From a virus (lineage: Duplodnaviria > Caudoviricetes): a stretch of 64,000 bases of DNA. Location of the stretch: positions 19,783-83,782 of IMG/VR virus record IMGVR_UViG_2681813556_000004. One strand, written 5' to 3'. The notes under the pieces are model-generated. The model worked only from the letters and a program-made list of their open reading frames with translations, had not been told where the DNA came from and did no database searches. Of the stretch, positions 13,829 to 52,551 are shown one piece after another; position 1 is the stretch's first letter, and the number at the start of each line of letters is the position of its first letter. A program made the translations under genes and the position numbers.

Positions 13829-14222
13829 GGCGCAGCCCCTTTACGACTGCCCCGGCCAGAAACAGCGGCAACACATAGGGCAGTCGGCGCCGAAGGCGTC
13901 GCGGGCCGAACATGGGATGGATGTTGCAAATCCAGCCCCGACCACGCACCCACAGCGCGGCATGGGCGGTGCCACGGTCGGTCCTGCCGACCCACAGCGC
14001 CATCCGCAGCACGGCGATATTGAGGATCAATCTCCACCAGGACCGCTGGCTGAGGATCCATGCGGCTGTCAGTGCGAAATCATCGCAGTCACCGATCAGC
14101 GGCCCATCCTCTGCATCGAGGATGGTCCAGCGATCCGTGGCTTCGGCCTGATAGCGGAACCGCAGACGAAGATCGTCCAGAGGATCGACCCAATCTGCGC
14201 GGGGGGGAATATGCGACGGCAT
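13821..14222 (-). CDS. Transglutaminase-like cysteine protease (BTLCP-like)
   Basis: DRW...GDCDDFAL and GTAHAALWV resemble the GDCEDYA and HAVL motifs of BTLCP. Confidence 0.6.
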   Translation of the reverse strand: MPSHIPPRADWVDPLDDLRLRFRYQAEATDRWTILDAEDGPLIGDCDDFALTAAWILSQRSWWRLILNIAVLRMALWVGRTDRGTAHAALWVRGRGWICNIHPMFGPRRLRRRLPYVLPLFLAGAVVKGLRRA

Positions 14223-14260
14223 TCGGACTCCTGCGTGTCATGCCCGAAGGCACGTCCCGC

Positions 14261-14273
14261 GCACGTCCTATGC
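14261..14273 (-). promoter_or_regulatory. Conserved late-leader motif GCATAGGACGTGC (copy upstream of protease/lysis genes)
   Basis: 13/13 identical to 46284-46296; folds as GCAU-AGGAC-GUGC. Confidence 0.7.
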
Positions 14274-14312
14274 GTCGATTGACCCACACATACCAAATCT
14301 GGATGCGGCCCG

Positions 14313-17300: not shown

Positions 17301-20300
17301 GCCGCCCGCGATCCGCTCCATCACCAACGCAGGGGACACAAAGCCTTGACCGCGCAGCCCGGACGCAATGGCTTGCAGGAATCCCCGCACCTTGTTGAAG
17401 ATCCGCGCCAAGGGCCCAGCCGCATCGCGTGCAGTCGCCCATTCACGGTACATCTCGGCAACCGCCTCTTCGATCTGCACCGAAGTGACCTTGTCGCCAT
17501 AGGCCCGCTCGACACGCGCCATCAGATCGGCATCGACCCGTGCAGCCCGGACCAGCGCCCGCCATTCCTCGGCGGTGAACAGGCCATAGGGCTGGCCCCA
17601 CAGGTCGGGATCGCGCAAGGCATGGACAATCTCATGCCGCATGACTCCGCGCGCATCCCGCGCCGCCGGGTTCAACTCGATCAAGGCCCCGCGCTGACGG
17701 CCCTGGATCGGTACGCCCGACGCCCCCAGCAGCCCGCGCACGACACGTGGCGTCACCTTGCCAGCCAGACCGGCCGCCGCAACCTCGGCCTCGGCCATCC
17801 GCGCAATGTCGCGCAGGGAATCCACCGGCACGGCGGCGGCGTTGATTTTCGGTGGTGCAAGCTGTAGGTTCAGCGTGTCGGCGCCGATTTGTAATTCTGG
17901 CTCCACGCGGGTCTCCCGCGCGTCCATCTGGCCTTGTGCCGGGGCGCCGATATTGCCGCCCAAGTTCAGGTCATAGAACATCCTGCCGTTGTCCATCTCG
18001 CGGATGACGATATGGATGGGCTCTTGGCGGCCGGCGACAGAAACCTGAGCCTGGAAATAGTGAATCTTGCGGACATGCGCGCGGCCGAAGCGGTCCTCGG
18101 ACTCGCCGGTTTTCTCCGCGCTTGCGACGATCTGTTCCAGCGCAGGCACGGCCCGCAGCAGATAGTCGAGCGGCTTCCCGCCGATCTTGCCCGCAGCGGC
18201 GCGCGTGAACGACACCTCCCAGCCCGTGGAAGTGTTCGTGACCTTCCTGCCTTGCAGGTTGTCGCGATACCACGCACGCGCCTTGCGTTGCAGATCAAGC
18301 ATGTCCTCCCACGGCCCGAGTTCGTCGCCGGTCAGGCGCGCGGCAGGTTCCTGATCATCAAAGCGGGATTCCTTGGCCTCGTCAGGCGCGTTCTCCGCCA
18401 GAAGGGCGCCTTCCAGTGCATCGACCTTTTCTGCCAGTTCGTTCAGCTTGTCCTGGTCTGCAAACCCTTTCAGCTTTGCCAGACCTTCCATCACATCGGC
18501 GCGCTCGCGCTCGCGCCGGGCAATATCGGCCTCGATCCGGCGCGGCGTGGCCTCGATCTTGGACAATGCCCCTTCGACCTTCCGGGCCATGCCAACCGGA
18601 TCCTCGGACCAGCCAACCATGACCTCGTTGTCGCGTGGCAGGGCGATATAGTAGGTCACGGCATTCATCGCGTGCGACACTTCGATGTGCAGCGGAAAGC
18701 CGGAAACGGTTCCGACCTTATCCTGATGTCTGAAACCCGTCCCGGCCAAGGCGTCCTCTGCGGCGCTGATCAGATCGGCGCCGAACTCCTTGCGCTCGGT
18801 ATAGGTCTTGCCGCCCATGCGCGCCTCGAAGGCATCGCCTGACAGGTCTTGTACCTTGGCGGCTTGCGGCTGCCAGAAGGTCAACTCCTCACGGTCCATT
18901 GCAATGGCGCGGCCCAGTCCGCGCGCCTTCGCCTCCATCTGCTGGCGTTCGCGCACCGCTGCCCCGGCCCGGCGCTGCAACTTGTCGCGCTCCGCCCGCA
19001 ACTCGGTCAGTTCCAGCACCCGAGGATCGGCGGTGGACATGGCTTTGGCTTGCTCATACTGGCTGGCCTCGCCAAGATCCTCCATGTCGCGCACATTGGG
19101 ATCGCCACGGAAGAACCCTTCGATGAACCCGGCCTTGCGCGCCATCATTTGCCACATGGTCGCGTCGTAGGTACCCTTGGCCGAGTAATCGAGGATTTCG
19201 ATTTCCCGGTTCATGTTGCCCTGCCGGATGCCGCGACCATTTCTCTGCTCGTCGTCGGCAGGGAACCACAACGGATCAAGGTTGTGGATCGCCGTGATGC
19301 GCCGTTGTGCATTGACGCCCGTGAACAGGGTCTTGGAACCGATCAGGATCCGTTTCTTGCCCTCGTTCATGTCATTGAACGCCCGCTGCTTGCGCGCATC
19401 GGATGTCAGATTCTCGGCCAGGATGATTTCGTCGGCTGGCACGCCCATGGCCACCAGTTGCGCCTTGATGAAGCGGTGAACCGAGAAGGACGGGTTGTGT
19501 TTCGACGGGTTCACGCCAAGGGTCGAGAACACCATTTGCGTGGTCGGGCCACGCATCAACGGTTCGTCGGTGTAGCCACCTTCCTTCTTCACCCCGTAAA
19601 GTGGGGCGTCGGCGCCTTCTTTCCAGCGGCGGTAGATGTTGTTGATCATCCGCTCCAGCTTGGAGTTGTTCTCGCCGGCGCTGGGGTCGACAAGGCGCAT
19701 GTCGATGGCTGCAAGGCGACCATCGTTGATGACCGACAACAGGATGTCGTCACCCTTCTTCACCGGCCCCTTCCGATTTTCGATCATGCGCATCCGCGCG
19801 CCCAACTGCTGCTGGTACGCCTTCAGCTCGGGCGAAGCCTCCACCACGATCAGGTTGCGCTTGCCATCTTTCAGCGCAGGCCGGGTCACGTACTGTTCAA
19901 GGTCTTTCGACGACACCACATCCATGACCTGCCGCACCATGAGCGACAGTTCCGGGGTGTTCACGAACTTGGCGAAGCGCGTGACCAGCTTGTACCCCCC
20001 ATCGGGGGCTTGCTCCAAGGCGTTCTCCGTGGTGCCGAAGGTGGCTGCCCAGGAATCGAAGGCCGAGATGTTGCGATCATCCAGCGCCTGCGGCTGCAAG
20101 TACCGGCTGATCGAATAGAGTTCCGCCATCGTGTTGGTAATGGGCGTGCCGGATGCCAGTACCAGACTGCGCCCCGGATTGCGTTGTGCAAGCGAGCGGG
20201 TCTTGATGAACAGGTCCATCGACTGTTGCGAGCCCTGCGGATCGACCCCCTTGATGCTGCCAAGGCTGGTGGCGAAGGATAGTTTGCGGAACAGGTGCGC

Positions 20301-26300: not shown

Positions 26301-28964
26301 GGCATCGACCTTTTTGCGGTCGAATGTCTCCATGACGGTTTCGCCGGTCTCCCGGTTGCGAATGACCCAGCTTGCGCCCGGCCCGGCCTGCTCATCGGTC
26401 AAGGATTGCTTGACGGTTGCAGGCTTGGGCAAAGGCGCCACCCGGTCCAGTTCCTGCAAGGCACCGCGCATCCGTGCGGCGATGGTGTCGCGGTCCATGC
26501 CATCGGTGTCGATTGTATAGTCCAGATCGCTGCGACCATTGGGGGTCGCCCGGATCACAATCTTGTTCGGGCGGATCAGAACATCGCGCCCCTCAAGCGT
26601 TGTGTCGTCGCTGCTGCGGCCAGAGGCCACGCCCAGAACGCGCCCCCATTCCCGGCGCCGCCGCTCTTTTGCCGCCATGTCGGCTTCCGTGACCGACTTG
26701 CCGCCAAGCATATCGGGCTGGACACGCTGCTCCGGTGGCGTGCGGATCGGCTCGACAGTCGGGCGCGGGCGGGTCGGCGCGGCCTCTGGCTCGGTGCCGG
26801 GATCGGTGATCTCCCCGGTGTCCTGGTCAAACTGCGGGGCCGTCTCCGCGATTTTGCCCAAGGCGTCGTATTTGCGCTTCATCGGCCCAGTCCAGCCGCC
26901 TTCGCGCGCACGATCTTCCATCTGGCGCATCTGCCTGATCGCTTCATCAGGCGTGACAGGCTGCTTTGGCTTCTTTTCCTTGGGCGGCTTGACCTTGCCC
27001 AATGCCTGTTGGGACAGTGCCTCGGTTTCCGGCGCGGCGGGCAGGGTTTCCTGCGTTGGCGACGGCATGGGCGTGGATTGCGCCGGTGCGGGCTTGGCTT
27101 CCGATTCAGCGGCTGGTTGTTGCGCGGTCGGCTGTTCCTGATCCTTCGGCTTGCTCTTGGTGGCCTGTTCCGCGGCCTTGTCCATGTCAGCCGCCTGACG
27201 GCGCGCAGTATCGAATGCCACCGGGTCGAGGTCGATTTCGACGCCATCAACGCGGATCACTACATTACCGTCCGGTGTTTCGCGCTGGAATACCACATCG
27301 CGGACGAGCCCGGCCTCGTCGTCATAGACACGAACGGCCCCGCCGGGCTTCTGGTCAGGGAACATCTGTGGTGCCGGAACCGGCTCCGGTTGGGGCGTCA
27401 GATCAGGTGCGAGGCGCGCCGCAGCCTCGATGGGTCCGGCAGGAGGGATTTCGTCGACCGCCGCGCCCACACCGGAGGGAGAACTCACCGGAGGGGAATC
27501 GGGCGCGGCGGTCTGCCCCCCGGCGCTGCCATCGCCGGGGTATGCGGATTGCGGGCGGAAACCTGCTGGCTGGGATGCTGGTGGGGTTCCATCAGGGGCG
27601 GAAGCGCCATCTGCGAAGACCGTTCCTCCATCAACCGGCGATGGAAGCTCCAACATCGGTGCCGGAAGGGCCAGCATCGGTGTGGGGGCTTCCGGCTCCG
27701 GCTGAGGCTCCTGCTGCGGACGGCGGGCGCCAAGCGCGCCCATGGGTCCACCGGCCAAAGCACCCGCAGCGGCAGCCTCGATCGCGCCTTCGGTCGGGTT
27801 CAAGCTGGTCCCGGCACCTCGGTTGATCCCGATCCGGGCGCCAGTGCTTTCCAGACCTTCTTGCAAGCCTTCCTCGGTCGCGCCAACGGCAACACCTCGG
27901 GCGACGTTCCCGGCAAGACTCTTTCCGGCAAGGCTTTGCGGCAGACCCTTGGCCACAAGCCCGCCGGTAATGGCGCCACCGGCGCCGCCGATCATAGCCT
28001 GAATGTCACCTGCGGCGTCCATGGCGCGGCGCCGGGTCTCTTGATAGGCCGCATTCGGGTCCATGCCCTGCGCGGTCAATTCGCGGAACACATCAGACTG
28101 CCGGGCTAGTTCCGGCGTGCCGTCCTCGCCCTTGGCCTTCCACAGATCGTCAATGACCTGCGCGGCGGTTTCACGGCCTTCTCCGCCCGCCATCGCCCCG
28201 CCGACACTGGCTGCGGCAAGGCTGCTGCCACGAGTAGCAATGGCCGTGGCGACGACAGGGGCAAGGCTTCCAAGCCCCTCTGCGCTGACCTGTGCCAGAC
28301 CGCGCCAGGAGAAGTCCTCCGGCGCCTTCCATGTCGATGGATCAAGCGGGTCACCTGTCGGCAAGGTCTTTTCCGAGGCTGCCCGCGCCTCTGGCGAAAC
28401 CGCCGACAGGATGCCCTCGCCAGCACCCTTCACGGCTTTGCTCGCGGGGTCGGTGAGGCGGGTTGCGACAGCCCCCAAAGGCTCCTGTCGGCCAGTCGCG
28501 GCTTGAATGATCCGCTGCGCAGGATCGGAATTCAGGGCACGGTCGGCCAGGTTTCCGGCGTAGTCGATGGCCCCGCCAACGCCGCGCACTGCGGCACCAA
28601 GCGCCCCGGCGCCAAGGTCTTTGACCAGCGATGGGCCATCTTTGGCGGTCGCGGCCTTTGGCTGTGGATCAAGCTCGTCCGCGATGCGATAGGCCACATC
28701 CAATAGATCGTCGCCGCCCCGCTCACGAAGCACGTCCTCGATCCCGCGCCCGGCTTTCACCTGTGCCGCCATCTCGGCAGCGAGGGCTTCTGCGCGCGCC
28801 TCGCTGCGATCCTTGTCAGTGGACAACACAGCCAGAATGGCGTTGGCAGGGATCCGATGCTTCGCAGCGATCCGGTTCAGCGATACTTTCGGATCTGCAT
28901 CAGCACTCTGGCGCTTGGCGCCCAGTGGTTGCACCAAGTCGCCAGCAAAGATGTTTCCTGCCAT
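14313..28964 (-). CDS. Giant polyvalent DarB-like ejection protein (PPase-like, GNAT, N6-adenine MTase, SF2 helicase, LPD3-like, zincin, PLxRFG)
   Basis: 4883 aa. ENAKGSERKG...YG...GADGDHVD...FDEHKVMLGF (~25770-26075); VREDMQRQGVST (~25060-25320); YEPGMGVG/NPPF (~22670-23450); AHTVGAGKT/DEAH (~19050-20960); HEIVH (17622-17636); PLARFG (~16390). Confidence 0.92.
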   Translation of the reverse strand: MAGNIFAGDLVQPLGAKRQSADADPKVSLNRIAAKHRIPANAILAVLSTDKDRSEARAEALAAEMAAQVKAGRGIEDVLRERGGDDLLDVAYRIADELDPQPKAATAKDGPSLVKDLGAGALGAAVRGVGGAIDYAGNLADRALNSDPAQRIIQAATGRQEPLGAVATRLTDPASKAVKGAGEGILSAVSPEARAASEKTLPTGDPLDPSTWKAPEDFSWRGLAQVSAEGLGSLAPVVATAIATRGSSLAAASVGGAMAGGEGRETAAQVIDDLWKAKGEDGTPELARQSDVFRELTAQGMDPNAAYQETRRRAMDAAGDIQAMIGGAGGAITGGLVAKGLPQSLAGKSLAGNVARGVAVGATEEGLQEGLESTGARIGINRGAGTSLNPTEGAIEAAAAGALAGGPMGALGARRPQQEPQPEPEAPTPMLALPAPMLELPSPVDGGTVFADGASAPDGTPPASQPAGFRPQSAYPGDGSAGGQTAAPDSPPVSSPSGVGAAVDEIPPAGPIEAAARLAPDLTPQPEPVPAPQMFPDQKPGGAVRVYDDEAGLVRDVVFQRETPDGNVVIRVDGVEIDLDPVAFDTARRQAADMDKAAEQATKSKPKDQEQPTAQQPAAESEAKPAPAQSTPMPSPTQETLPAAPETEALSQQALGKVKPPKEKKPKQPVTPDEAIRQMRQMEDRAREGGWTGPMKRKYDALGKIAETAPQFDQDTGEITDPGTEPEAAPTRPRPTVEPIRTPPEQRVQPDMLGGKSVTEADMAAKERRRREWGRVLGVASGRSSDDTTLEGRDVLIRPNKIVIRATPNGRSDLDYTIDTDGMDRDTIAARMRGALQELDRVAPLPKPATVKQSLTDEQAGPGASWVIRNRETGETVMETFDRKKVDALNTAKYEAVPAREHLESLNRKPTTVADSKPAQGDPQTALPPTNEPQKPVPTREQFEAAAAETNPDPTPAQKEAENYKTAKIDWQGMRLSIENAKGSERKGTSPDGTEWKVTMPAEYGRILRTTGADGDHVDFYMGPNTASESVWVVDQIDPDSGTFDEHKVMLGFDTPADAKATYQAGFSDGRGAARIGGIRKMALPEFKAWLDSGETDTPVSGKAKAGGKISPPPASSESISPVIENIREKAAVLRGVPKDQPPAVSGVSLKWDDKEGGFIFSRKHADKVRDAVMPKPAPKEGTPGVLILNSLQTGKTRIVDTGPSQPRRPGAADVKVENEGEHSVAFRLGDAAMIAFPDAASKTLQADVTEVREDMQRQGVSTALHDKAIEYAAERGWRFLSGYELTEDGRAFYDGLKRKGYDVRLVDLPNGERAYEVRRPEAKPLDGEIITPQDDADVRQAGAKVAGIDLQAAPTPTRAPWWDNADKAMRDAILKEAGPKAEREYRQGMAWDGLSDDGKRALTDAFGRLYRAGTLENTGTIEAPSYQIAGQKPAVGLGDLLSGYERTRDAFGEPTTDQARVTDDGYVVKRQVNRTTITDPKGRQIFAGTHNVDEAKIESVIADARKPEQAARRETPVGSKASDAPVPISPQPTGPRRFDWWWTNNRDQRREALKNAGLDTTVSTGLTSGEVADRLTGEQMETLRTAIFGPESAGAQRRKPASGILSALSEDKQKRADELKARLAAKARNQTSSGLDPEYITLGAELVGLYIEAGTKRFGQMLRDFAESTGLTMREAQAPMRAAYNHVRDTMDLDGQDVSDMDDAKAVLDEVRRAMAEAEASQSKVHSEPESRNVGVDAEPENRRDDNRNNASDDRPSPQEGAGDLQAGTGQAGSLRSDDRTAGRPGNRVAERTGERSGPRRDGQRSGDGSGPGNGTGGRGPVNHVIEPGGLELARGEKTRARESIAAIRTLRTIQQEGRPATAEERATLAKYGGAGTLAGTLPRSDGTIRFPDLAAEIETMTTPEERATLSRTSQYAFYTAESALRSMWTLAQQLGFTGGRVYEPGMGVGGFAGTMPGSLNATYTGLELDHITAQIAAALYPRHNIKNGDFIKEKLPQGFYDLVIGNPPFAGTQIKADPDYPQGFFIHDYFFAKSLDAVRPGGVLMFITSAGTMNKMDSKARDYLADRADLVGAIRLPNTAFKENGTEVTTDIIVLRKRVDSEAEANPAWRQSEVIDLPGSDGTTGQAAVNRYFIENPDMILGEQGLYDTLTAGARVGVRPRPNADLRADLKSVLSQFPSNIMSAPPESVKLDALDADHAETKPGSFYLKDGALWLFDGNTGRKVEPRSRENTKGMPKAAMEAVKALIPIKNALRDVYAADVDGKDASAARKALNDSYDAYVKERGPIGLQHRRTQRPSIVEQESARQQAENDARAAGEPFDIGSFDAGPMIEAGASMAEIARARQEARQAPGYREGTFAPEAMDDKIIVTRPNIDPFMDDPESYRLLAIEKYDEKTDTAQKTRVFTENAVRVSSRPQINSPEDALLHLLGETGRVDPGRIAALSNSTSERVISELEGKIFQNPRTREWETRARYLSGNVVVKLEEAEREARANPEYQPNVDALRAVQPAPVAAQDISVPLGAHWFPTSIYPDFAEALGLELQVEFKPRLGIWLVNGTTTGAKATSEFGTEDRPFGELMGLVMANKKVEVRRTRRNQDGSTDSWVDEEATQAATDKANELQTRFRDWFWSDPARTAEMETLYNRTFNAEVAPKYDGEYLTTPGIHSDWSWRPHQTAVIARILQSGDTYMAHTVGAGKTSAMIGAGMEAKRLGLARKPWYTVPNHMLIQFATEFYQQYPLAKVLVADEKRFHTSRRKQFVADAALGDYDAVIITHSAFQLIPASEASKKAAVEGMLQDVRDVLEGLSGGQFGEDAGMERSVLGALHSMAATLGVDVKGITSGETKTRKKIEALLEAAEQRIARQTSDKGKDAVFDFDETGADMLFVDEAHLFRKLSFATSLGSIKGVDPQGSQQSMDLFIKTRSLAQRNPGRSLVLASGTPITNTMAELYSISRYLQPQALDDRNISAFDSWAATFGTTENALEQAPDGGYKLVTRFAKFVNTPELSLMVRQVMDVVSSKDLEQYVTRPALKDGKRNLIVVEASPELKAYQQQLGARMRMIENRKGPVKKGDDILLSVINDGRLAAIDMRLVDPSAGENNSKLERMINNIYRRWKEGADAPLYGVKKEGGYTDEPLMRGPTTQMVFSTLGVNPSKHNPSFSVHRFIKAQLVAMGVPADEIILAENLTSDARKQRAFNDMNEGKKRILIGSKTLFTGVNAQRRITAIHNLDPLWFPADDEQRNGRGIRQGNMNREIEILDYSAKGTYDATMWQMMARKAGFIEGFFRGDPNVRDMEDLGEASQYEQAKAMSTADPRVLELTELRAERDKLQRRAGAAVRERQQMEAKARGLGRAIAMDREELTFWQPQAAKVQDLSGDAFEARMGGKTYTERKEFGADLISAAEDALAGTGFRHQDKVGTVSGFPLHIEVSHAMNAVTYYIALPRDNEVMVGWSEDPVGMARKVEGALSKIEATPRRIEADIARRERERADVMEGLAKLKGFADQDKLNELAEKVDALEGALLAENAPDEAKESRFDDQEPAARLTGDELGPWEDMLDLQRKARAWYRDNLQGRKVTNTSTGWEVSFTRAAAGKIGGKPLDYLLRAVPALEQIVASAEKTGESEDRFGRAHVRKIHYFQAQVSVAGRQEPIHIVIREMDNGRMFYDLNLGGNIGAPAQGQMDARETRVEPELQIGADTLNLQLAPPKINAAAVPVDSLRDIARMAEAEVAAAGLAGKVTPRVVRGLLGASGVPIQGRQRGALIELNPAARDARGVMRHEIVHALRDPDLWGQPYGLFTAEEWRALVRAARVDADLMARVERAYGDKVTSVQIEEAVAEMYREWATARDAAGPLARIFNKVRGFLQAIASGLRGQGFVSPALVMERIAGGTVGGRGPDGPGAGRMDDREMRDALMRSGAKAKGLIGSHHWKEPGAFVSSILTDAMVGKGRDGEYNLLSLVPGRPLFMELGKRLVSARAYLRTKEEMDALRNAWHGRADAVAQEWLDLRRKDPRANDDMMDLMHRATLAGVDPSKPLPSDHVWLQRAREELSRRGDSAEAWARATLEAAARKAEAHMELKRAYDALPEPFKAMYGKVLAEYTAIADDFDKAVMENLQNATRIGLKRAERAFHKEARRIQDEGLTGQEKTDALAEAQAKLDAVKARGGFAARARLTALRKMFEQNRMKGPYVPLARFGDYFVTVRNEQGEVMSFSRFERESQQQAFVREQEALHPGRVQHGLVSNKGALRSQVDPTFVADVEKVLAESGANFEVMDAVWQRWLETLPDSSIRTSKVHRKGRAGYNRDAYRAFGKHMFHGAHQLARLKYGILLEDHMDEAELEARKSDNPNRMGAVVREMQRRHDFTMEPLTSAWAAGLTNLAFIWYLGATPAAAVANLTQTTVVGIPLMATRFRKAGVSGVSAELARALRDFSKGRGANWRETWSAANAEGLAQDERDALNEAYRRGTIDKTQAHDLAAVAETGVEYSAVRERVMRKIGWMFHHAERLNREVTFLAGYRLAKADGLSGLAAIDAAADMTWEVHFDYQSSSRPRAMQGDLARIVTSMKNFVVNMLWRLFRDTHQSLHGASKQERAEARSQLIGITLSMMAHAGIRGTWGYGLLMMLLGAFFPGGGDDAEEWLQDALLMEGDTPGVAAWNYAMGMAMSGVPGRVLGADLTERVGMPNLWFRGDDRDLEGQDLYDAHMRELLGPVAGIPLGFYRGLDYIGDGDWWRGIEAAVPKAVRDLMKAGRFSTEGAITRNGDPLIEDVSPYQAIMQASGFTPAQLAERYRINNRLRNVERRITDERKSLHREAGDALRSGQPIPEGVIDAIRDFNMRYPEYPITSDTLRQSMLGRIRASERNEFGVSLNPKLNDRIRSERAPAIFN
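23495..23728 (-). CDS. Nested out-of-frame 77-aa helical protein (TnpV-like pattern)
   Basis: GGAG RBS; MITAIMQAMIDRAPKKAREISKRGPDKLEAYVRMIVQQADQEI...; G/C-ending codon bias follows this frame, not the giant frame. Confidence 0.65.
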   Translation of the reverse strand: MITAIMQAMIDRAPKKAREISKRGPDKLEAYVRMIVQQADQEIALQNVPENDPARDVMVREVAMALALETALAGEDQ

Positions 28965-28998
28965 AGAACGGCCCCCTTACGGTTCGGTCTATGGCTGT

Positions 28999-29009
28999 CA
29001 CATCCTATG
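28999..29009 (-). promoter_or_regulatory. Late-leader motif CATAGGATGTG upstream of the giant gene
   Basis: One mismatch to CATAGGACGTG; intergenic, ~35 nt before the ATG. Confidence 0.65.
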
Positions 29010-29060
29010 GCAGCCTGTTCCCCTCCTGATACCGTATGATGGCCCCCGCCGACAAGCGCG

Positions 29061-45083: not shown

Positions 45084-45151
45084 GGTGGCGATCCTTGTGC
45101 TGTCCGGTTGCTGGATGGCGGGGCCGGTCGGGCGGCCCCTGCCGGATCAGA

Positions 45152-46246
45152 TCAGGCGGCGTTGGGGTCGCGGCAGGAGGTATCGACGGCGATGACGCCA
45201 AAGTCCTTGCCGTTGAACCGGGTCTTTTTCATCCCGAGGATCGCCCCGCAGTAGATGGCCACCTGGTTGTCGGCGTCGAACATCTTCTCGACCCATGTGA
45301 AGCGGGTACCGCGCCCACCCGAGCCATAGGCGACGACACCGGCTTGCCGACCCATCAAGAGCGACCGGGCCGCGCTGACGTTGCCGCCGACGCCGTAATC
45401 GCTGAAACGACGCACGCCTTCATGCTGATGCAGTACGGTGTCGTTGATCATGCCGAGGCCGCCCTTCACGATGGGGCTATTGCGGCCCTCGCTGGTGGCC
45501 AGCGCCTGCTGGATCTTGGACCACGACAGATCGCCGGTTTCCACGCGCATGTCGTAGGCTTGGAAGGGGCTCATCAGGAGGATGAACCGCTTCGCGCCTT
45601 CGATGCTCACCGGCGTCATCTTCATCACGTCCGGGTTGGTGGCATTCATCATGCGCGGCTTGACCGTCACCCGTTCGATCAGGGCGACGTTCATCTTGTC
45701 GGCGGCGGTCAGGGTGGCCTTGGAAACAGCGGTCCCGCCGTAAAGCTGGTGGTCGGAATCGGGTGCCTGGATCGGGTTGCCTGCGAACTCGCCCGAGAAC
45801 TTGCTGTCCTGGTTGGCCGCGGTGGGGGCGCCGGACAGATAGACGTGGAATCCCTCGTCCACCCATTCGGCCATGTAGGTCGCGGTGCGGTCGCGGGCGA
45901 TGCGGCGCAAGTCGTGCAAGGTGCGCTTGCGCGTCATGCGACCGCCACCCGAGGCGCCTTTGCGTACCTGGTCGATTTTCACTTCGTCCTGGTAGAAAGT
46001 CAGGGGTTCCTCGGTGCCTTCGACCACATTGTCGCCTGTGGTGACGCCCCCCCGGAGGTTCACCGACAGGTCGAACTTGATGGCGTCACCGGCATCGTCT
46101 TCGAGGTCGGTGCGGCGCTCGATGATGTTGTTTTCACCGGAGCCGATGAAGCGTTGGTAGTAGGTTTGCTTGTCGGCTTCGAGGGCCAGCGACGTGGCCC
46201 ACCGCTTCACCGCCTGGGGGGAGTTTACGCCAACAGTCGTCAGCAT
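45152..46246 (-). CDS. Major capsid protein (N4-gp56 family-like)
   Basis: AVKRW...GDAIKFDL...VEGTEEPLTFYQDEVKIDQVRKG...LHDLR...KKTRFNGKDFGVIAVDT; AAGGAG RBS before ATG 46246. Confidence 0.92.
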   Translation of the reverse strand: MLTTVGVNSPQAVKRWATSLALEADKQTYYQRFIGSGENNIIERRTDLEDDAGDAIKFDLSVNLRGGVTTGDNVVEGTEEPLTFYQDEVKIDQVRKGASGGGRMTRKRTLHDLRRIARDRTATYMAEWVDEGFHVYLSGAPTAANQDSKFSGEFAGNPIQAPDSDHQLYGGTAVSKATLTAADKMNVALIERVTVKPRMMNATNPDVMKMTPVSIEGAKRFILLMSPFQAYDMRVETGDLSWSKIQQALATSEGRNSPIVKGGLGMINDTVLHQHEGVRRFSDYGVGGNVSAARSLLMGRQAGVVAYGSGGRGTRFTWVEKMFDADNQVAIYCGAILGMKKTRFNGKDFGVIAVDTSCRDPNAA

Positions 46247-46283
46247 ATCGGACGCTCCTTTGGTCAAGAGAGGTTTGACCCAG

Positions 46284-46296
46284 GCACGTCCTATGC
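46284..46296 (-). promoter_or_regulatory. Conserved late-leader motif GCATAGGACGTGC upstream of the capsid gene
   Basis: Between the CsrA-like stop (46302) and the capsid RBS; identical to 14261-14273. Confidence 0.7.
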
Positions 46297-46301
46297 TTGG
46301 C

Positions 46302-46499
46302 TTAGGAGTCCCCTACCACATGTTGGGTGTGTGTATCAACTGGCGGATTATCTCCGCCATCCGACATTGTGATCTTGACGTCTGGGGGCGCCGAAACTGC
46401 GACACGGATACGTCTGTCACCGGCCTTGATCAGGTCGAGAGTGACGTCTCCCACCCTGATCTTGGCGCCGGTCCCCATCAAGATATTGCGAACAAGCAC
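46302..46499 (-). CDS. CsrA/RsmA-like RNA-binding protein
   Basis: GGAGG RBS, GTG start; MLVRNILMGTGAKIRVGDVTLDLIKAGDRRIRVAVSAPPDVKI follows the CsrA pattern ML.L.R..GE.I.IGD.I.V.V......VRLGI.AP..V.I. Confidence 0.7.
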   Translation of the reverse strand: MLVRNILMGTGAKIRVGDVTLDLIKAGDRRIRVAVSAPPDVKITMSDGGDNPPVDTHTQHVVGDS

Positions 46500-46515
46500 G
46501 GCGTGCACCTCCCTA

Positions 46516-47409
46516 TCAGTTCAGGTATGCGGCTTGGCGTTCGGGCGGGAGGCGAGCCAGCATGGCTTCCGCCCGTTCAGGATCCACGCCCATCATGCGG
46601 TCGATGGCTGCGAAGGTTCCATCATCGGCATCTGCACCCGGTTCAGCGCCGGAAAGGCCGGTCAAGGTGCGGGGCGGTTCTGGCCGCGGATCGGTGCGTG
46701 GGCCGGCGTCGTCAGGCTTGGCCTGCTTGGTGGCATTCGGGCGGGTAATCGACTGTCCTGTCGTCACCTCCACATGATCAGCATAGAGCCGGTGGGCCAG
46801 TTCGATCTGCTTCTCCATGGGCAGGCTTGCATAGGCGGCGCTGCCGGTGACAGACCGCAATGCGGCGTCCCAGCCGTCGATATGAGCCTCTGATGCCAGA
46901 TCGGGGTGCTGGGTATGGTAGGCGTCCAGCTTGGCATACCATGCCTGGGCGCGGGCTTGCTGCTGCTGGTTCAGCACGGTCTGTGCCAGTTCGATCTGGG
47001 CCATGGCGCGGGCCTTGGACTGCACCAATTCGGCTTGCTGTGCATCCCATTCAGCGCGGGTGAGGTCGCCATCATCGTATTTCTGGACCAGCTCTGCCAG
47101 CTTGGTATCGGCTTCGGCCAGGGCCTGCTGTGCTGCGGACACGTCAGGCAGCGGCACAGCCGTGGCTGCAGGTGCCGGTTCCGGCTCCGGCTCGGGCTGC
47201 TTCGCTTCGATGGTCTGAGGCGTCTCGTCCTTGGCGGGTTCTTCCTGCGTTTCGAGGGCGGCCAGAACGGAGTCCTCGCCTTCGGTCAGCGCGGCAATCT
47301 CGCCTTCATCGAGGAATGCCTTCAGGCCATCCATGGAGAAGGCGTCGGGCAGCCCCGCCGCGTTGAGGGCCTTATTCGGGTTCGGGGTTTCGGTGGTGGT
47401 GTCGGTCAC
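46516..47409 (-). CDS. Capsid scaffolding protein
   Basis: Acidic N-terminus, coiled coil, Pro-rich C-terminus; between portal and capsid. Confidence 0.75.
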   Translation of the reverse strand: MTDTTTETPNPNKALNAAGLPDAFSMDGLKAFLDEGEIAALTEGEDSVLAALETQEEPAKDETPQTIEAKQPEPEPEPAPAATAVPLPDVSAAQQALAEADTKLAELVQKYDDGDLTRAEWDAQQAELVQSKARAMAQIELAQTVLNQQQQARAQAWYAKLDAYHTQHPDLASEAHIDGWDAALRSVTGSAAYASLPMEKQIELAHRLYADHVEVTTGQSITRPNATKQAKPDDAGPRTDPRPEPPRTLTGLSGAEPGADADDGTFAAIDRMMGVDPERAEAMLARLPPERQAAYLN

Positions 47410-49664
47410 TGGATCGCTCCTTGTGCGGCGGGTTGTGCGGTAGGTTGCTCGGTGGGCTGGACGGCACCGGGTGGGATCGTGGCGGCGGCTGGCGCTGCCG
47501 CTGGCGGGGCGCCGCTGGCTTCGGCATTGGCGAGGATCTGGTCAGCGGCTCTGGCGACGGCCGGGGCGCCCGCGATGGCTACGGCGGCTTCGAAGGCGGC
47601 TTTCAGCTTGGCAATCTGGTCGGCAGGCAGGGAGGCAGCGGCCTTTTCGGCTTCGGCGCGGGTCTTTGCGGCCTTGGCTTCCTTCTCGGCCAGTTCGGCC
47701 TCGGCCGCGCGCTTCTGCATTGCGTCCGCTTCGGCTTTTGCGGCATCTGCGGCCTGCTTTTCCGGCGTCGGGTTATTCGGGTCCGCATCGGGATCCTCGG
47801 CGCCGGTGATCTGACGGATGCGCTTGACCAGTTCGTCGCGCTTGGGCACGTCCAGAGCCTCTACGACCAGATCGAGGGTTTGCAGGACGATCTGGGGCGC
47901 AGTGGCGGCCAACCGTTCCATGAGCCCAAGCAATTCTTCGGCCTGAGCCTGCCGGGCGGTCGCACGCCAGTCATCTTCGGTGATGACGAAATCCGCCTTC
48001 GAGTTGGCGATGGCGGTGTTCGGATCGCCATTGTTGATGCTGATGTACTGAGGGTTTCCCCGACTGTCCGTGATGCGGAATTCGTCGGCCTCGGTGTAGA
48101 ACTGCTCGACGTTCACCAGCAGTTTTTCGCCATGGATCATGCGGGCCTGGCGCAGGTTCTCGAAGAAGATGAAGGTGGCAAGCTGGCCCTGCTCCTGACG
48201 GGCAATGATCGCCTTGCCGGAGGCAGCATTGGTCTTGCGCCCGAGGTTTTCATCGGTAACGCCAGACACCTGCTGGATCATCTGGGCGTCCCGGCTCATC
48301 AGGTCGATATGTGCCGCTGCGAGGTTGGTGTCAGTCTCGATCTTGGGCGGCGTTCGGTTCGGCTTGTGAACGATCACCGCATCGGGCCTGCCTGCCTCGT
48401 CGCGCAGTTCCTCGATGTCATCCACGGCACCTTCCTCGACAGTGACGCGGGTTGTGGACAGGTGATGCAGCGCCTTGGAGGCGCGCTTGTTCAGGTCACG
48501 CTGAATGTCGCGCAGGCCACGGATGAGGCCATAGGGCATTCCGTCCGAGGCTCGGCGGTAGCCCCAGATCGGGGTGAATGGGTAGCGGTTGTGCCGATAG
48601 GGCGACTCCCGAATATCGAGAAAGCCCGCATCGGTCAGCAATGCGCAATGAACAACCTCGCGCGGTCGGGTGACGAGGGTTGCGCGGCCAGTGGCCAGTT
48701 CCTGCCAGTGACCGGGGCTCCATTCATCCAGAAGCTCGCCATTGAACTGCCCGCCCCGGATGATCTTGGCATTGGGCTGGACGCGCTTGAACCAGACTTC
48801 GATGCAGCGCACGCGGCGGCGTTCGGTGTCGTAATGTCGGTTGACCGGGCCGCTGGTATCGAAGTGTGCCAGTTCCTGCGCATCCATGGCCTCATCACCC
48901 AGATCGTCCAGTGTCAGCAGGCCGGGTGTCACATCATCTGCCGCCGACAGCAGCACGCCCTTCCGTTCGGGCCACAGAGCGGTCGCCAGGTCCAGATCGA
49001 GCCACTTGGCCCGCATGACATAGCGGGCATCTGCGATGTCCATGCGTGTGCTGGTGCTGTCCCACAGCATTGATCGCCACGATTCCCAGCGGTCGAACAC
49101 GATAGTGCCGTCCTCTGGATCGCCTTGGCCCGTCTCGACCCAGCCGACACCGGCTTTGACCGCATCGGTGAATGCCTGGGCATAGGCGAATTCGCTGCGG
49201 TTCACGTCGCGCAGGTGGGCGAGCAACTGTGACTTGATTTCCGCCTGCTTCAGCCCGTCCCTGTGGCGTGGCAGCACCTTGTAATCCATCGGCGCGCGGC
49301 GCTGGCTGCCCAGCACCCAGTTCACCGAGGTCTGGATCATGTTGAACACGATGGGGGCCTGACCTCGTGCAGCCAGGGCGGCCAGTTCTTCGTCCGTCCA
49401 TTGCTGGTGGTCGTACATTGCCTCGTCCATCGCCATTTGCAGACGATTTTCGTTCTGGCGTTCCAGTTCGCGGGTGTAGTGGCCCAGCACACGGACATGC
49501 ATTGCCTGCCCTTGGGGGCCGTCCATCCATTCAATCTTGGAGGATGCCTTGTCGGCGCTGTGCTGAGCCTGCATTCGCTCGAAATAGCCGTCGCCCGCCT
49601 GCGCTGGCCTGCGCGGGTCATACTCCACCATGTTTCGCGGGTTGGTATCCTGTGGATCAAACAT
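47406..49664 (-). CDS. Portal protein (P22-like)
   Basis: QWTDEELAALAARGQAPIVFNMI, AFTDAVKAGVGW, PYGLIRGLRDIQRDLNKR; start at MFDPQ 49664. Confidence 0.9.
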   Translation of the reverse strand: MFDPQDTNPRNMVEYDPRRPAQAGDGYFERMQAQHSADKASSKIEWMDGPQGQAMHVRVLGHYTRELERQNENRLQMAMDEAMYDHQQWTDEELAALAARGQAPIVFNMIQTSVNWVLGSQRRAPMDYKVLPRHRDGLKQAEIKSQLLAHLRDVNRSEFAYAQAFTDAVKAGVGWVETGQGDPEDGTIVFDRWESWRSMLWDSTSTRMDIADARYVMRAKWLDLDLATALWPERKGVLLSAADDVTPGLLTLDDLGDEAMDAQELAHFDTSGPVNRHYDTERRRVRCIEVWFKRVQPNAKIIRGGQFNGELLDEWSPGHWQELATGRATLVTRPREVVHCALLTDAGFLDIRESPYRHNRYPFTPIWGYRRASDGMPYGLIRGLRDIQRDLNKRASKALHHLSTTRVTVEEGAVDDIEELRDEAGRPDAVIVHKPNRTPPKIETDTNLAAAHIDLMSRDAQMIQQVSGVTDENLGRKTNAASGKAIIARQEQGQLATFIFFENLRQARMIHGEKLLVNVEQFYTEADEFRITDSRGNPQYISINNGDPNTAIANSKADFVITEDDWRATARQAQAEELLGLMERLAATAPQIVLQTLDLVVEALDVPKRDELVKRIRQITGAEDPDADPNNPTPEKQAADAAKAEADAMQKRAAEAELAEKEAKAAKTRAEAEKAAASLPADQIAKLKAAFEAAVAIAGAPAVARAADQILANAEASGAPPAAAPAAATIPPGAVQPTEQPTAQPAAQGAIQ

Positions 49665-50154
49665 CGCGGGAGATCTCCGACTGGCGGGTTTCGCCGGTGA
49701 CGGTGTTGGTGATCTTGATCTCACCGAAGGACGGGCCGCTTCTGCGGCGATCCAGCGCCGGTGCCGGCGGCATGGACAGAAGATCGGGCAGATAGTGGTT
49801 GATCGTGTCCAGGACGCGCAGGCGGTCGCGCGGGCTGTGAGCATTGCCGGGAAGCAGGCCATCTGCGAGCCATTGGAATGTGCGTGCCCCGCAATGCTCT
49901 GGGTCGCCGACATCGCCATGTGCGGCCCATCGCCATGCCTCACTCAGCGGGATCACGACCGGGACCGTTCTGCCGCGGGCGATAGGGCGCAGTGGGTGCA
50001 GCAGCACCATGCAGGGCTCTGGCAAGGGGCTTGCATCGGTACGGATCCACGATCCGACGACGACGATGCCATTGCGTTCGCCGTCGAAGTGCCGCCGACG
50101 CAGATCAAGGGCTGGTGCCTCGATCATGGCGCGGGGAATGAGCATTTCGGTCAC
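49657..50154 (-). CDS. Conserved phage protein between terL and portal
   Basis: GTGA overlap with the terL stop; ends ...DLLSMPP...GEIKITN. Confidence 0.7.
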   Translation of the reverse strand: MTEMLIPRAMIEAPALDLRRRHFDGERNGIVVVGSWIRTDASPLPEPCMVLLHPLRPIARGRTVPVVIPLSEAWRWAAHGDVGDPEHCGARTFQWLADGLLPGNAHSPRDRLRVLDTINHYLPDLLSMPPAPALDRRRSGPSFGEIKITNTVTGETRQSEISRDV

Positions 50155-51560
50155 GCAGTCAATCCTGACGTTCGGCGCGGCCTCTTGCTCGCGGAGTTGT
50201 TCTTGGGGTGGAGGAAATCGACGGACTGGCCCCACTGACGGAGGGCGTCGGCATAGTTCGAATAGCGGTCGTGCTCGGGTTCGTCGGTGAACGCATCGAG
50301 CCGGGCGTTGTACTTCTTGCGGTAGTTATCCATCGCCACGATGCCGTCGCCGCACTCGTCAGCGTCGAAATACACGTTGTGGCCGAGGGCCAGCCGGGTC
50401 TGGTTGATGCCGGTCAGCACTTCCTGCACGCGGGGCACAATCTCGAAGCGCAGGCCGGGCAGCAGCTCTTGCAGGAGCTGGACCGCACTCTTGCCGGTTT
50501 GCAGGCTCTTGTTGGCGGCGTCATGCGGCAGATAATGCGTGCCGGAAAGATTGTAGCCGGTGGCCAGCAGGAACTTGGCGTAATGCTCCAGGCTCTCCCC
50601 GCTGTTCTCGTATGCCTTGATGAAGCGTGTCTCACCCGCAACCTGCTGCATGAACCAGATTGCGGTGGTGTCATTCCAGCCCAAGTCCCAGAAGGTATGG
50701 ACCGGCAGGCCGGTGGAATAGGGCACATGCCGGATTCGGCCCTCGGCCCGCAGCTTCTGCATCTCGTTGGCATAGTAGGCTCCCCGGATGCGACCCTGCC
50801 GCCAGAGGCCCATCAGCAGGGCATCGCGTTCCTCGGGCGGAAGCTGCAACAGGGCTTCGCGGTAGCCTGTGCCGCCCAGATGGGTATTCTCGGACAAGCG
50901 CGCCGGGATGAACTGGCGGAACATCGTCGTGATGGTGCCGAGTTCTTCATCCACGATGTCGACGGGAATGCAGGTTGCCTTCCCATCTTCCTGAATGCCC
51001 CAGCGTTCCATCACCCACTTCTGGCCGGGACCATCCGGGTTGGTGGTGGCCCGGATGTAGCGGGGCAGCGTCTTGTCGGTGCTGCGGCAGCGTGAGAACA
51101 GGTAGAGATAGCAGGTCGGCGTCGGCCAAAGGGTGAGTTCGTCAAAGCCGATGTAGTTCCAGGCCCGGCCCCGGTATTTCAGGCGGTCGCTGTCGTTTTG
51201 CAGATAGCCGAATTCGACCTTGGCACCGCTGGAAAAGGTCCAGACCTTTTCGGTGGAGTTGTAGGAGGCGCCTGGGTCCAGATCCTTGTAGACCTCCAAG
51301 CTGCGCCCGATCAGGTCGCGCAACTCGGGGAAGCTGCGGCGGAACAGGACGGCGCGGTGGTTGGGATTGTCGATGCCGTCATGTTGCAGGCACAGCGCAT
51401 CAATCAGCAGGGCATCAGACTTTCCCCCGCCGGCCGCCCCGCCATAGAGCACCTCGAAGTCGTCGCATTCCAGAAATACGGCCTGCTTGGGCGTGGGCTT
51501 CCAGATCACCTCATAGGTGTCTGGATCAGCGTCCCACTCACCAGGGCGCAACATGCTCAT
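50151..51560 (-). CDS. terL: Terminase large subunit
   Basis: LYGGAAGGGKS (Walker A), IGFDELT (Walker B), IRATTNPDG, WDLGWND, YLPHDA. Confidence 0.95.
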   Translation of the reverse strand: MSMLRPGEWDADPDTYEVIWKPTPKQAVFLECDDFEVLYGGAAGGGKSDALLIDALCLQHDGIDNPNHRAVLFRRSFPELRDLIGRSLEVYKDLDPGASYNSTEKVWTFSSGAKVEFGYLQNDSDRLKYRGRAWNYIGFDELTLWPTPTCYLYLFSRCRSTDKTLPRYIRATTNPDGPGQKWVMERWGIQEDGKATCIPVDIVDEELGTITTMFRQFIPARLSENTHLGGTGYREALLQLPPEERDALLMGLWRQGRIRGAYYANEMQKLRAEGRIRHVPYSTGLPVHTFWDLGWNDTTAIWFMQQVAGETRFIKAYENSGESLEHYAKFLLATGYNLSGTHYLPHDAANKSLQTGKSAVQLLQELLPGLRFEIVPRVQEVLTGINQTRLALGHNVYFDADECGDGIVAMDNYRKKYNARLDAFTDEPEHDRYSNYADALRQWGQSVDFLHPKNNSASKRPRRTSGLTA

Positions 51561-51946: not shown

Positions 51947-52551
51947 TGCCGGGCGACGTTCTTGAAGCTGATGCCCAAGACCGCTTTCGCGATTGTTCGC
52001 TGGCAGACGCCATGTCTTGCCGCCAATTGCCGCTGTGTTGCGCCACCACGGGCGTATTTCTCTCGGATGGCTGCGACTTCGGTATCGGTCAGCTTTGCCT
52101 GCGGGTGCTTTTCCCCGCGAATGGCATTCTTGACCTTGGCGTGTCGGCCTTTTCTGGTCATGTCGAGGTTGTTGTCGGCCCGTGTTCCGCCGAAAAGATG
52201 CGCGGGGTTGCAGCATCTCGGGTTGTCGCAAGAGTGGCAGACAGCTTCCGGCAATTTGCCGTTGGCGAGCCCGTAGGCAATCCTGTGCGCCAGCATCACT
52301 GACGAACTAGACCTCCCGACATGGAATTGTCCGTAGCCCTTGTTCAGGGCGCCAGACCACTCCCAGCATGATTGCGGGGATGGGCGGTCTACCTTGGACC
52401 AAAACCGTTCGACGTTCACCTGGTATTCCGCCGCGAAGGCGGCGTGATCTACGATGTTCCGCTCGTTGAGTGCTCCGACCTTGCGCGCCACGTCCTGTGC
52501 TCCATCCGCCATGTGGTGCACATTGTGCATCATTTTGGCGGACTCGGGCAA
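51931..52551 (-). CDS. Free-standing HNH (HNH_3-type) homing endonuclease with C-terminal HTH
   Basis: RFWSKVD...CWEWSG...GYG...AHRIAY...CHSCDNPRCCNPAHLFGGTRADN; GEKHPQAKLT; exact start uncertain. Confidence 0.88.
   Translation of the reverse strand: MPESAKMMHNVHHMADGAQDVARKVGALNERNIVDHAAFAAEYQVNVERFWSKVDRPSPQSCWEWSGALNKGYGQFHVGRSSSSVMLAHRIAYGLANGKLPEAVCHSCDNPRCCNPAHLFGGTRADNNLDMTRKGRHAKVKNAIRGEKHPQAKLTDTEVAAIREKYARGGATQRQLAARHGVCQRTIAKAVLGISFKNVARQWVMN
52489..52499 (-). promoter_or_regulatory. Late-leader-like motif CACAGGACGTG at the head of the packaging operon
   Basis: Variant of CATAGGACGTG with the U.G pair replaced by C-G; lies within the uncertain 5' end of the HNH gene. Confidence 0.4.

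Follow-up and report, generated by a model that had tools for sequence, protein, structure and literature searches.

A conserved, start-hiding leader RNA ahead of the capsid gene of Bcep22-like phages and its possible control by a phage-encoded CsrA-like protein

The leader of the major capsid gene carried by the tailed-phage record IMGVR_UViG_2681813556_000004 (Duplodnaviria; Caudoviricetes) of IMG/VR was analysed in a stretch of 64,000 nucleotides (nt), positions 19,783 to 83,782 of that record, hereafter the window. The leader is a well-supported member of a conserved cis-regulatory RNA family that occurs in the late leaders of Bcep22-like phages and lies outside Rfam, and it is shown by computation that the capsid mRNA, left alone, closes its own translation start. 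Just upstream lies a small gene whose product resembles the RNA-binding regulator CsrA, and the 5' strand of the closed structure can by itself form a small hairpin resembling a CsrA site. We infer, with slightly better than even confidence, that the phage CsrA-like protein binds this small hairpin on the nascent mRNA and acts as a translational activator of the capsid gene by anti-sequestration, the binding and its activating sign alike.

A sequence-only reading of this DNA had proposed that the capsid leader can adopt two exclusive folds, one of them occluding the Shine-Dalgarno (SD) sequence. The sequence and coordinates that it gave are all correct, and the folding calculation that it suggested as a check, made with RNAfold, bears the proposal out: the long fold is both the minimum free energy (MFE) structure and the centroid, the small hairpin is incompatible with it, and the AUG is occluded as well as the SD. 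The long fold (Table 1) has 21 base pairs (bp) broken by small bulges and is composed of an AGCAUA/UAUGCU outer helix, a GGACGU/GCGUCC helix, a CCU/AGG pairing and an inner hairpin. On the minus strand, GGACG at 46291-46287 pairs with CGUCC at 46254-46250, and within the SD, AAGGAG (46260-46255), the AGG is matched by CCU (46284-46282); 3-4 of the six SD bases are paired, with unpaired probabilities of 0.00-0.09 for most of the SD. The outer helix, absent from the earlier reading, joins AGCAUA (46297-46292) to UAUGCU (46247-46242) and buries the start codon too, the unpaired probability of the capsid AUG in the long fold being ~0.01-0.04. The small hairpin consists of GCAU (46296-46293), an AGGAC loop and GUGC (46287-46284), with a stem of 4 bp; it uses the same bases as the long fold, so that the two structures are mutually exclusive.

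The long fold was assigned -28.4 kcal/mol by RNAfold, against -18.9 +/- 2.9 kcal/mol for shuffled sequences (z -3.3; 1/200 shuffles equally good), and a second estimate gave z -3.96. Enforcing the small hairpin costs ~10 kcal/mol (-21.8 kcal/mol, compared with -32.1 for the long fold), the hairpin by itself being worth just -1.5 kcal/mol. Along direct paths the barrier from the open to the closed state is 3 kcal/mol and that from closed to open is 21.7 kcal/mol. When the transcript is allowed to grow, the small hairpin is the MFE structure until the SD has been made, ~40 nt later, and an in-silico block of the 13-nt site raises the unpaired probability of the AUG from ~0.02 to ~0.66. The two folds are real, yet they are no equilibrium pair, because the closed fold is ~10 kcal/mol more stable, and it follows that the switch, if there is one, is kinetic and must work during transcription. 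The earlier idea of a protein shifting an equilibrium between the folds is therefore not supported in that form, given this energy gap and the height of the reopening barrier.

For the comparison with relatives, 160 capsid-homologue loci were fetched from IMG/VR, metagenomes, genomes and cultured phages, from which 120 unique leaders were extracted without selection (capsid identity 46-100%); 105 leaders were scored in the folding and pairing tests. Pairing in the small hairpin was counted on the unselected MAFFT alignment of all 120 leaders (requiring 4/4 pairs would be circular). Whole-leader MAFFT alignments misregister the 3' arm, and long-range pairs were judged by alignment-free tests and on an alignment fitted with a covariance model. 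The 120 leaders share a consensus motif of 12-13 nt, G-C-[G/A]-[C/U]-A-[G/U/A]-G-A-(N)-G-U-G-C, the fixed positions of which are 92-98% conserved in the unselected alignment, with adjoining columns of random composition; among the scored leaders it lies 23-47 nt from the capsid AUG. The four stem pairs of the small hairpin form in 94-98% of leaders, compared with 7-69% when the pairing is slid. The first G of the loop is G in 73 leaders, U in 28 and A in 18, and the conserved loop core is A-N-G-A. As in CsrA sites, the window hairpin (GCAU-AGGAC-GUGC) is short and displays GGA in its loop; the canonical hexaloop A-N-G-G-A-N is not found here, the loop having 5 nt (AGGAC) and 4-5 nt in most relatives, and a few clades carry canonical CsrA hexaloops, AUGGAU or AUGGAA. 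A DNA-level palindrome or operator was rejected: 91/120 stems need a G-U pair and all copies are on the sense strand, and the G-U pairs together with this strict strand bias argue for an element acting at the RNA rather than the DNA level. The possibility that the AGGA loop serves as a ribosome standby site or SD decoy was also rejected, ~40% of the loops being AUGA or AAGA, which are poor SD mimics. A search of positions 45900-46700 of the window with Rfam 15 gave no family match, the two matches returned being at chance level (E 5-7) and on the opposite strand.

The counterpart of the 3' arm in relatives co-varies with the motif. The paired 5'/3' segments read GGACG/CGUCC in the window, GGAUGUGC/GCACAUCC in Bcep22, and AUAGGAUG/CAUCCUAU, GGAGUGCU/AGCACUCC and GGAGCUGCC/GGUAGCUCC in loci L004, L044 and L039, respectively. 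Duplexes between a leader's own 5' and 3' segments have an energy of -12.2 kcal/mol, versus -9.1 kcal/mol for cross pairs, a difference reached by 0/5000 permutations. An exact reverse complement of the motif's variable loop/3'-stem 5-mer occurs at most 18 nt from the AUG in 34/105 leaders, where 3.0 are expected from leaders with other 5-mers. In the MFE structure the motif and the start region share 6 bp or more in 99/105 native leaders (94%) and in 47% of chimeras with swapped 3' parts, and the small hairpin appears in the MFE of 5% of native leaders versus 45% of chimeras. Column by column, the motif is paired to the start region in 44-85% of native leaders, and the pairings of the variable loop base are C-G (27), U-A (21), G-C (7), A-U (5) and U-G (5). 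In the alignment of 45 matches to the covariance model, R1, 73% of cells pair and both sides have changed in 58 cells, compared with 26.5 after shuffling, this alignment being fitted to the structure, so that its pair counts lean that way; the covariation score is 0.193, against 0.135 for shuffled (0/500) and 0.02-0.07 for slid alignments. The inner hairpin likewise shows compensatory changes in relatives, e.g. GGUCAU/AUGACC. In the window's clade the motif variant GCAUA is complementary to UAUGC, and the start codon itself is therefore part of the complement. These comparisons confirm that the leader pattern exceeds chance and that its architecture and compensatory changes have been kept across >100 relatives.

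The small gene ahead of the capsid gene occupies the same position in Bcep22 (gp54) and BcepMigl, where it is annotated 'CsrA-like regulator', and JC1 gp47 is the same gene in the same place. The family can be taken as truly CsrA-related, since a profile of 36 syntenic homologues, including the window protein, matches RsmE/CsrA structures over residues 1-46 at E 1.3e-14. With an iterated hidden Markov model, a CsrA-like homologue was found at most 1 kb upstream of the capsid gene in 124/148 loci with enough flank, usually ending 60-120 nt before the capsid AUG, and several of the remaining loci give weak syntenic CsrA-like matches. In both complete genomes that lack an adjacent copy (2/2), the CsrA-like gene lies elsewhere (E ~1e-8) with a motif copy 57 nt downstream of it (G001:C1:39347-39358 for locus L078 and G002:C1:24135-24146 for L081), and both capsid leaders keep a copy of their own. 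The capsid leaders of these two loci also show a divergently oriented motif pair ~70 nt apart. Four outgroup types (933W-like PA28, Vibrio K248, phiR18 and LKA5), with capsids 23-31% identical, have no CsrA-like gene, no motif, and short plain leaders. The host genome (4.17 Mb, 100% complete) contains no CsrA match above the Pfam cut-off; its comparable weak matches are the CsrA-like gene and an unrelated 603-aa frame on another contig, and the cell probably has no CsrA-family protein besides that of the phage. csrA is likewise missing from the Burkholderia hosts in which related phages live (PMC7366521). In published work the phage CsrA-like gene is regarded as a moron whose role is unknown, and its product as perhaps associated with the virion (PMC9144972).

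The motif is also found elsewhere in the window. Four copies of CAYAGGAYGTG are present, all on the late sense strand, where 0.06 are expected, and three of them stand 35-40 nt ahead of an ATG with an SD: those of the capsid gene, the leading gene of the lysis block and a giant polyvalent gene. The MFE structure of the lysis leader pairs GCAU-A-GGAC with GUCC-GA-AUGC, like the capsid leader, and gives the AUG an unpaired probability of 0.04-0.1; this leader is the only other R1 match in the window, a weak one (E 0.086). The same leader has a C(UUCG)G hairpin and one more GGACGUGC. The MFE structure of the giant-gene leader buries its AUG (unpaired probability 0.00, z -3.2). Within that leader, two GCCAUAG copies compete for a CUAUGGC that spans the start codon, and the GGAUG of the motif pairs with CAUC downstream of the AUG. 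Among 16 late starts, those of the capsid, lysis and giant genes have the lowest AUG accessibility (0.00-0.04, compared with 0.09-0.67 for the others). The fourth copy has no convincing SD or AUG at the usual distance and may lie within an open reading frame (ORF). A second sense-strand motif in Bcep22 (L175, record 48832-48844) is located ~880 nt inside a DarB-like giant gene and not in a leader, so that relatives do not all conform to the picture of a regulon.

A promoter-like element in front of the capsid leader (Table 1) is conserved in the closest relatives, and a like element precedes the giant-gene leader (29030-29055, minus strand), the two sharing the form TTG-N15-ATRTGGTA. Other clades have a sigma-70-like TTGCAA-N17-GATAAT at the same place. 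A scan of 45100-46600 for sigma-70 promoters and terminators found nothing, the promoter-like element having no match to the sigma-70 consensus. Its promoter function is putative and is suggested by the conserved sequence; because the element lies 21 nt upstream of the motif, the latter is probably near the 5' end of a transcript.

In the proposed mechanism, the CsrA-like protein would capture the small hairpin while this is the sole structure on the nascent transcript, during about the first 40 nt after the motif, and once bound would hold the 5' strand off the start region, allowing ribosomes to load. The product of the neighbouring CsrA-like gene is the likeliest factor to occupy the hairpin. 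A site-like hairpin and a complementarity to the start region, both of them conserved, are what would be expected if binding and sequestration compete, and activation is therefore the more parsimonious interpretation. From the energetics it follows that the protein would have to act on nascent RNA, or that opening needs help. In the prophage the lysis block and the giant injected protein might be further targets of the same protein, and its targets would be delayed until the late operon has made the regulator. More tentatively, and at somewhat less than even confidence, the phage CsrA homologue in Csr-less hosts may be a dedicated activator of a late regulon (capsid, lysis cassette and giant injected protein) that works through a co-transcriptional kinetic switch, in which the site is the anti-start strand and the targets remain off until the regulator accumulates.

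Several observations weigh against the proposal of activation by the CsrA-like protein. The closed fold is ~10 kcal/mol lower, so activation would demand kinetic capture, a plausible but hypothetical route. The co-occurrence of gene and motif amounts essentially to a single evolutionary gain. The small hairpin shows only 4 double compensations (G-C to U-A or A-U), the remaining stem changes being G-U/A-U/G-C or C-G/U-G exchanges, and this covariation is scant because the stem sequence itself is conserved; in addition, the GGA of the loop is replaced by UGA or AGA in ~40% of leaders, and the hairpin is thus not a canonical CsrA site. In a search against Pfam CsrA (PF02599), whose cut-off is 27 bits, the window protein reaches just 15.5 bits (E 0.018). 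A conserved arginine, Arg44, is essential for RNA binding by CsrA of E. coli; the window protein reads DVKITMS, placing Met at the aligned position, as in most proteins of its clade. Arg or Lys is found at position 44 in 32/40 relatives with GCGC-AGGA loops and in 4/17 members of the window's clade, and the raw counts of Arg/Lys44 versus GGA loop (42/36/21/7) look strong, but the association is lost once phylogeny is taken into account (median p ~0.4 over 6 independent pairs). Among loci L001-L165, relatives with AUGA loops often have the Arg one residue earlier (I-R-x), not at the Arg44 position (I-x-R), and those with AAGA loops mostly have neither arginine, a statistically unsupported hint of protein-RNA co-variation.

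Other explanations of the leader have been considered. It could be a structured leader without a dedicated protein, that is, a constitutive attenuator, an mRNA stabiliser or a processing site (e.g. for RNase III), in which cleavage or melting by ribosomes permits capsid translation and the motif is conserved for some other reason. The very stable closed fold, of about two helical turns, and its position near the likely transcript 5' end would suit such a role; this account nevertheless appears unlikely, as it does not explain the near-invariance of the 5' 13-mer among hosts belonging to different classes, with a 3' arm that varies to fit it, nor the presence of the same 13-mer on several leaders, nor the motif copy that travels with the relocated CsrA-like gene. 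A shade less likely is the action of another trans-acting factor at the motif, which might be the scaffold or capsid protein in an autogenous circuit, a host factor, or a nut/boxB-like antitermination factor on late transcripts. Autoregulation by P22-type scaffolds is known, the motif lies close to a putative promoter and in front of several late units, and the window's CsrA-like protein is without Arg44; nonetheless, it is a CsrA homologue that is regularly found along with the motif, some clades combine the canonical AUGGAU or AUGGAA hexaloops with Arg44, and antitermination would not need pairing of the start codon.

Classical CsrA-type repression, ranked just after and likewise improbable, would have a dimer bridging the GGA of the loop and that of the SD (33 nt apart) block the ribosome and restrict capsid synthesis, perhaps just when the protein is abundant. 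Both GGA sequences are indeed present, and most known CsrA targets are repressed (PMC7492729). Repression would, however, add little to a leader that is closed already without protein, and capsid protein is the product of which most is required; in many relatives GGA is missing from the SD (e.g. Bcep22, GAGG) or from the loop, and the complementarity between site and start region, for which repression has no need, is conserved. Very improbable is translational coupling, in which ribosomes stopping at the CsrA-like stop codon would unfold the 5' arm and free the capsid start, making capsid translation dependent on that of the upstream ORF. The window geometry would allow it, the stop codon (46302-46304) nearly abutting the outer helix that begins at 46297, but in most relatives the motif lies ~30-60 nt past the stop with a promoter-like element between them, the lysis and giant-gene leaders share the fold without this stop-codon geometry, and a promoter-like element in the 3' end of the gene would yield transcripts without upstream translation.

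The activation proposed for the phage CsrA-like protein has parallels. E. coli CsrA has been shown experimentally to activate ymdA translation by opening an SD-sequestering hairpin (Renda et al. 2020, PMC7492729), and hmsE of Yersinia pestis offers a further comparison case for CsrA activation (PMC10294631). The likeness to ymdA consists of protein sites in a 5' leader whose alternative structure hides the SD and of binding that is proposed to hold the start region open and so to activate; the sequestering structure on which ymdA-type activation depends is found in the phage leader, with SD and AUG paired in both the MFE structure and the ensemble, and the site overlaps the start-pairing strand if the motif is taken as the protein site. 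The phage leader differs from ymdA in that its regulator would be phage-encoded, in a host without csrA, in that its site, instead of ANGGAN, is an A-N-G-A-N pentaloop carried by a stem of conserved sequence, in that the site itself is the anti-start strand and the AUG is buried besides the SD, and in that the design, known here from sequence, recurs in several late leaders and has been kept in >100 phages. The CsrA consensus obtained by systematic evolution of ligands by exponential enrichment is RUACARGGAUGU. The RsmE-hcnA complex (PDB 2jpp) resembles the phage case in having (A)GGA in a short hairpin loop, with a CAGGAUGU-like sequence in many relatives and a protein family homologous to RsmE. 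Compared with CsrA/RsmE sites, the phage loop is one base shorter, its GGA is not invariant and its stem sequence is conserved; compared with CsrA/RsmE repression, the phage site pairs with the start region and the predicted sign is activation. Com of phage Mu is a small zinc-finger RNA-binding protein that activates translation of the late mom mRNA by blocking formation of a stem-loop in which the SD and start codon are hidden. A small phage protein that activates a late gene by preventing a start-hiding stem-loop is also what is proposed here, but Com has a zinc finger, is unrelated to CsrA and has a single target, whereas the present case involves the CsrA fold and a motif on multiple leaders.

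The element would be classed as phage-encoded anti-sequestration control of the CsrA type, with a non-canonical site and a kinetic character. In the published literature, as far as it could be searched, no RNA target of phage CsrA-like proteins is described, nor is the RNA element. For 15 years CsrA-like genes have appeared in phage annotations, discussed as 'morons' with a possible role in host reprogramming, and a concrete candidate target now lies on the phage itself. If the proposal is true, widespread podophages (of Burkholderia, Ralstonia, Erwinia, Klebsiella, Rhodobacterales and others) would use translation to set when, or in what proportions, the capsid, lysis and injected proteins are made; a private regulator joined to a compact RNA switch would be a rare example of activation in the CsrA family, and would offer a portable protein-RNA pair for synthetic control in csrA-less bacteria. 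Whichever ligand proves to be involved, the leader defines a new and well-supported family of cis-regulatory RNAs with no entry in Rfam.

Table 1. Coordinates, in the window, of the capsid leader, its further copies and the neighbouring late genes
Feature	Position	Strand	Remarks
Whole long (closed) fold, capsid leader	46242..46297	minus	MFE and centroid; covariance model of relatives scores 72 bits here
Conserved 13-nt motif GCAUAGGACGUGC	46284..46296	minus	small hairpin and 5' arm of long fold
Inner hairpin GGUCAA-ACCUCUC-UUGACC	46262..46280	minus	stem 46280-46275 / 46267-46262; fits both folds
SD AAGGAG of capsid gene	46255..46260	minus	holds second GGA
3' arm CGUCC-GA-UAUGCU	46242..46254	minus	contains start codon AUG 46246-46244; pairs with motif in MFE
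Promoter-like element TTGATA-N12-ATGTGGTA	46314..46339	minus	21 nt upstream of motif, in 3' end of CsrA-like gene
CsrA-like gene (65-aa ORF)	46302..46499	minus	late gene; from GTG 46499; stop 46302-46304, 5 nt before long fold
Major capsid gene	45152..46246	minus	364 aa; Pfam Phage_capsid_3 E 2.9e-58; PHROG 334 major head protein
Scaffold-like gene	46516-47409	minus	late gene
P22-type portal gene	47406-49943	minus	late gene
Terminase gene	50151-51560	minus	late gene
Second switch copy, lysis-block leader	14216..14281	minus	ATG 14222; identical 13-mer
Third switch copy, giant polyvalent gene leader	28950..29011	minus	ATG 28964; motif CAUAGGAUGUG, 35 nt before ATG
Fourth motif copy CACAGGACGUG	52489..52499	minus	near head of terminase unit

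A gap of 55 nt separates the 65-aa CsrA-like ORF from the major capsid gene, which is 55-66% identical at the DNA level to the capsid genes of Bcep22-like podophages. Close relatives of the prophage reside in Rhodobacterales genomes (Frigidibacter and Celeribacter). At 47409-47427 on the minus strand, the start region of the scaffold-like gene, AAGGAGCGAUCCA-GUG, is similar to that of the capsid gene, AAGGAGCGUCCGAU-AUG.

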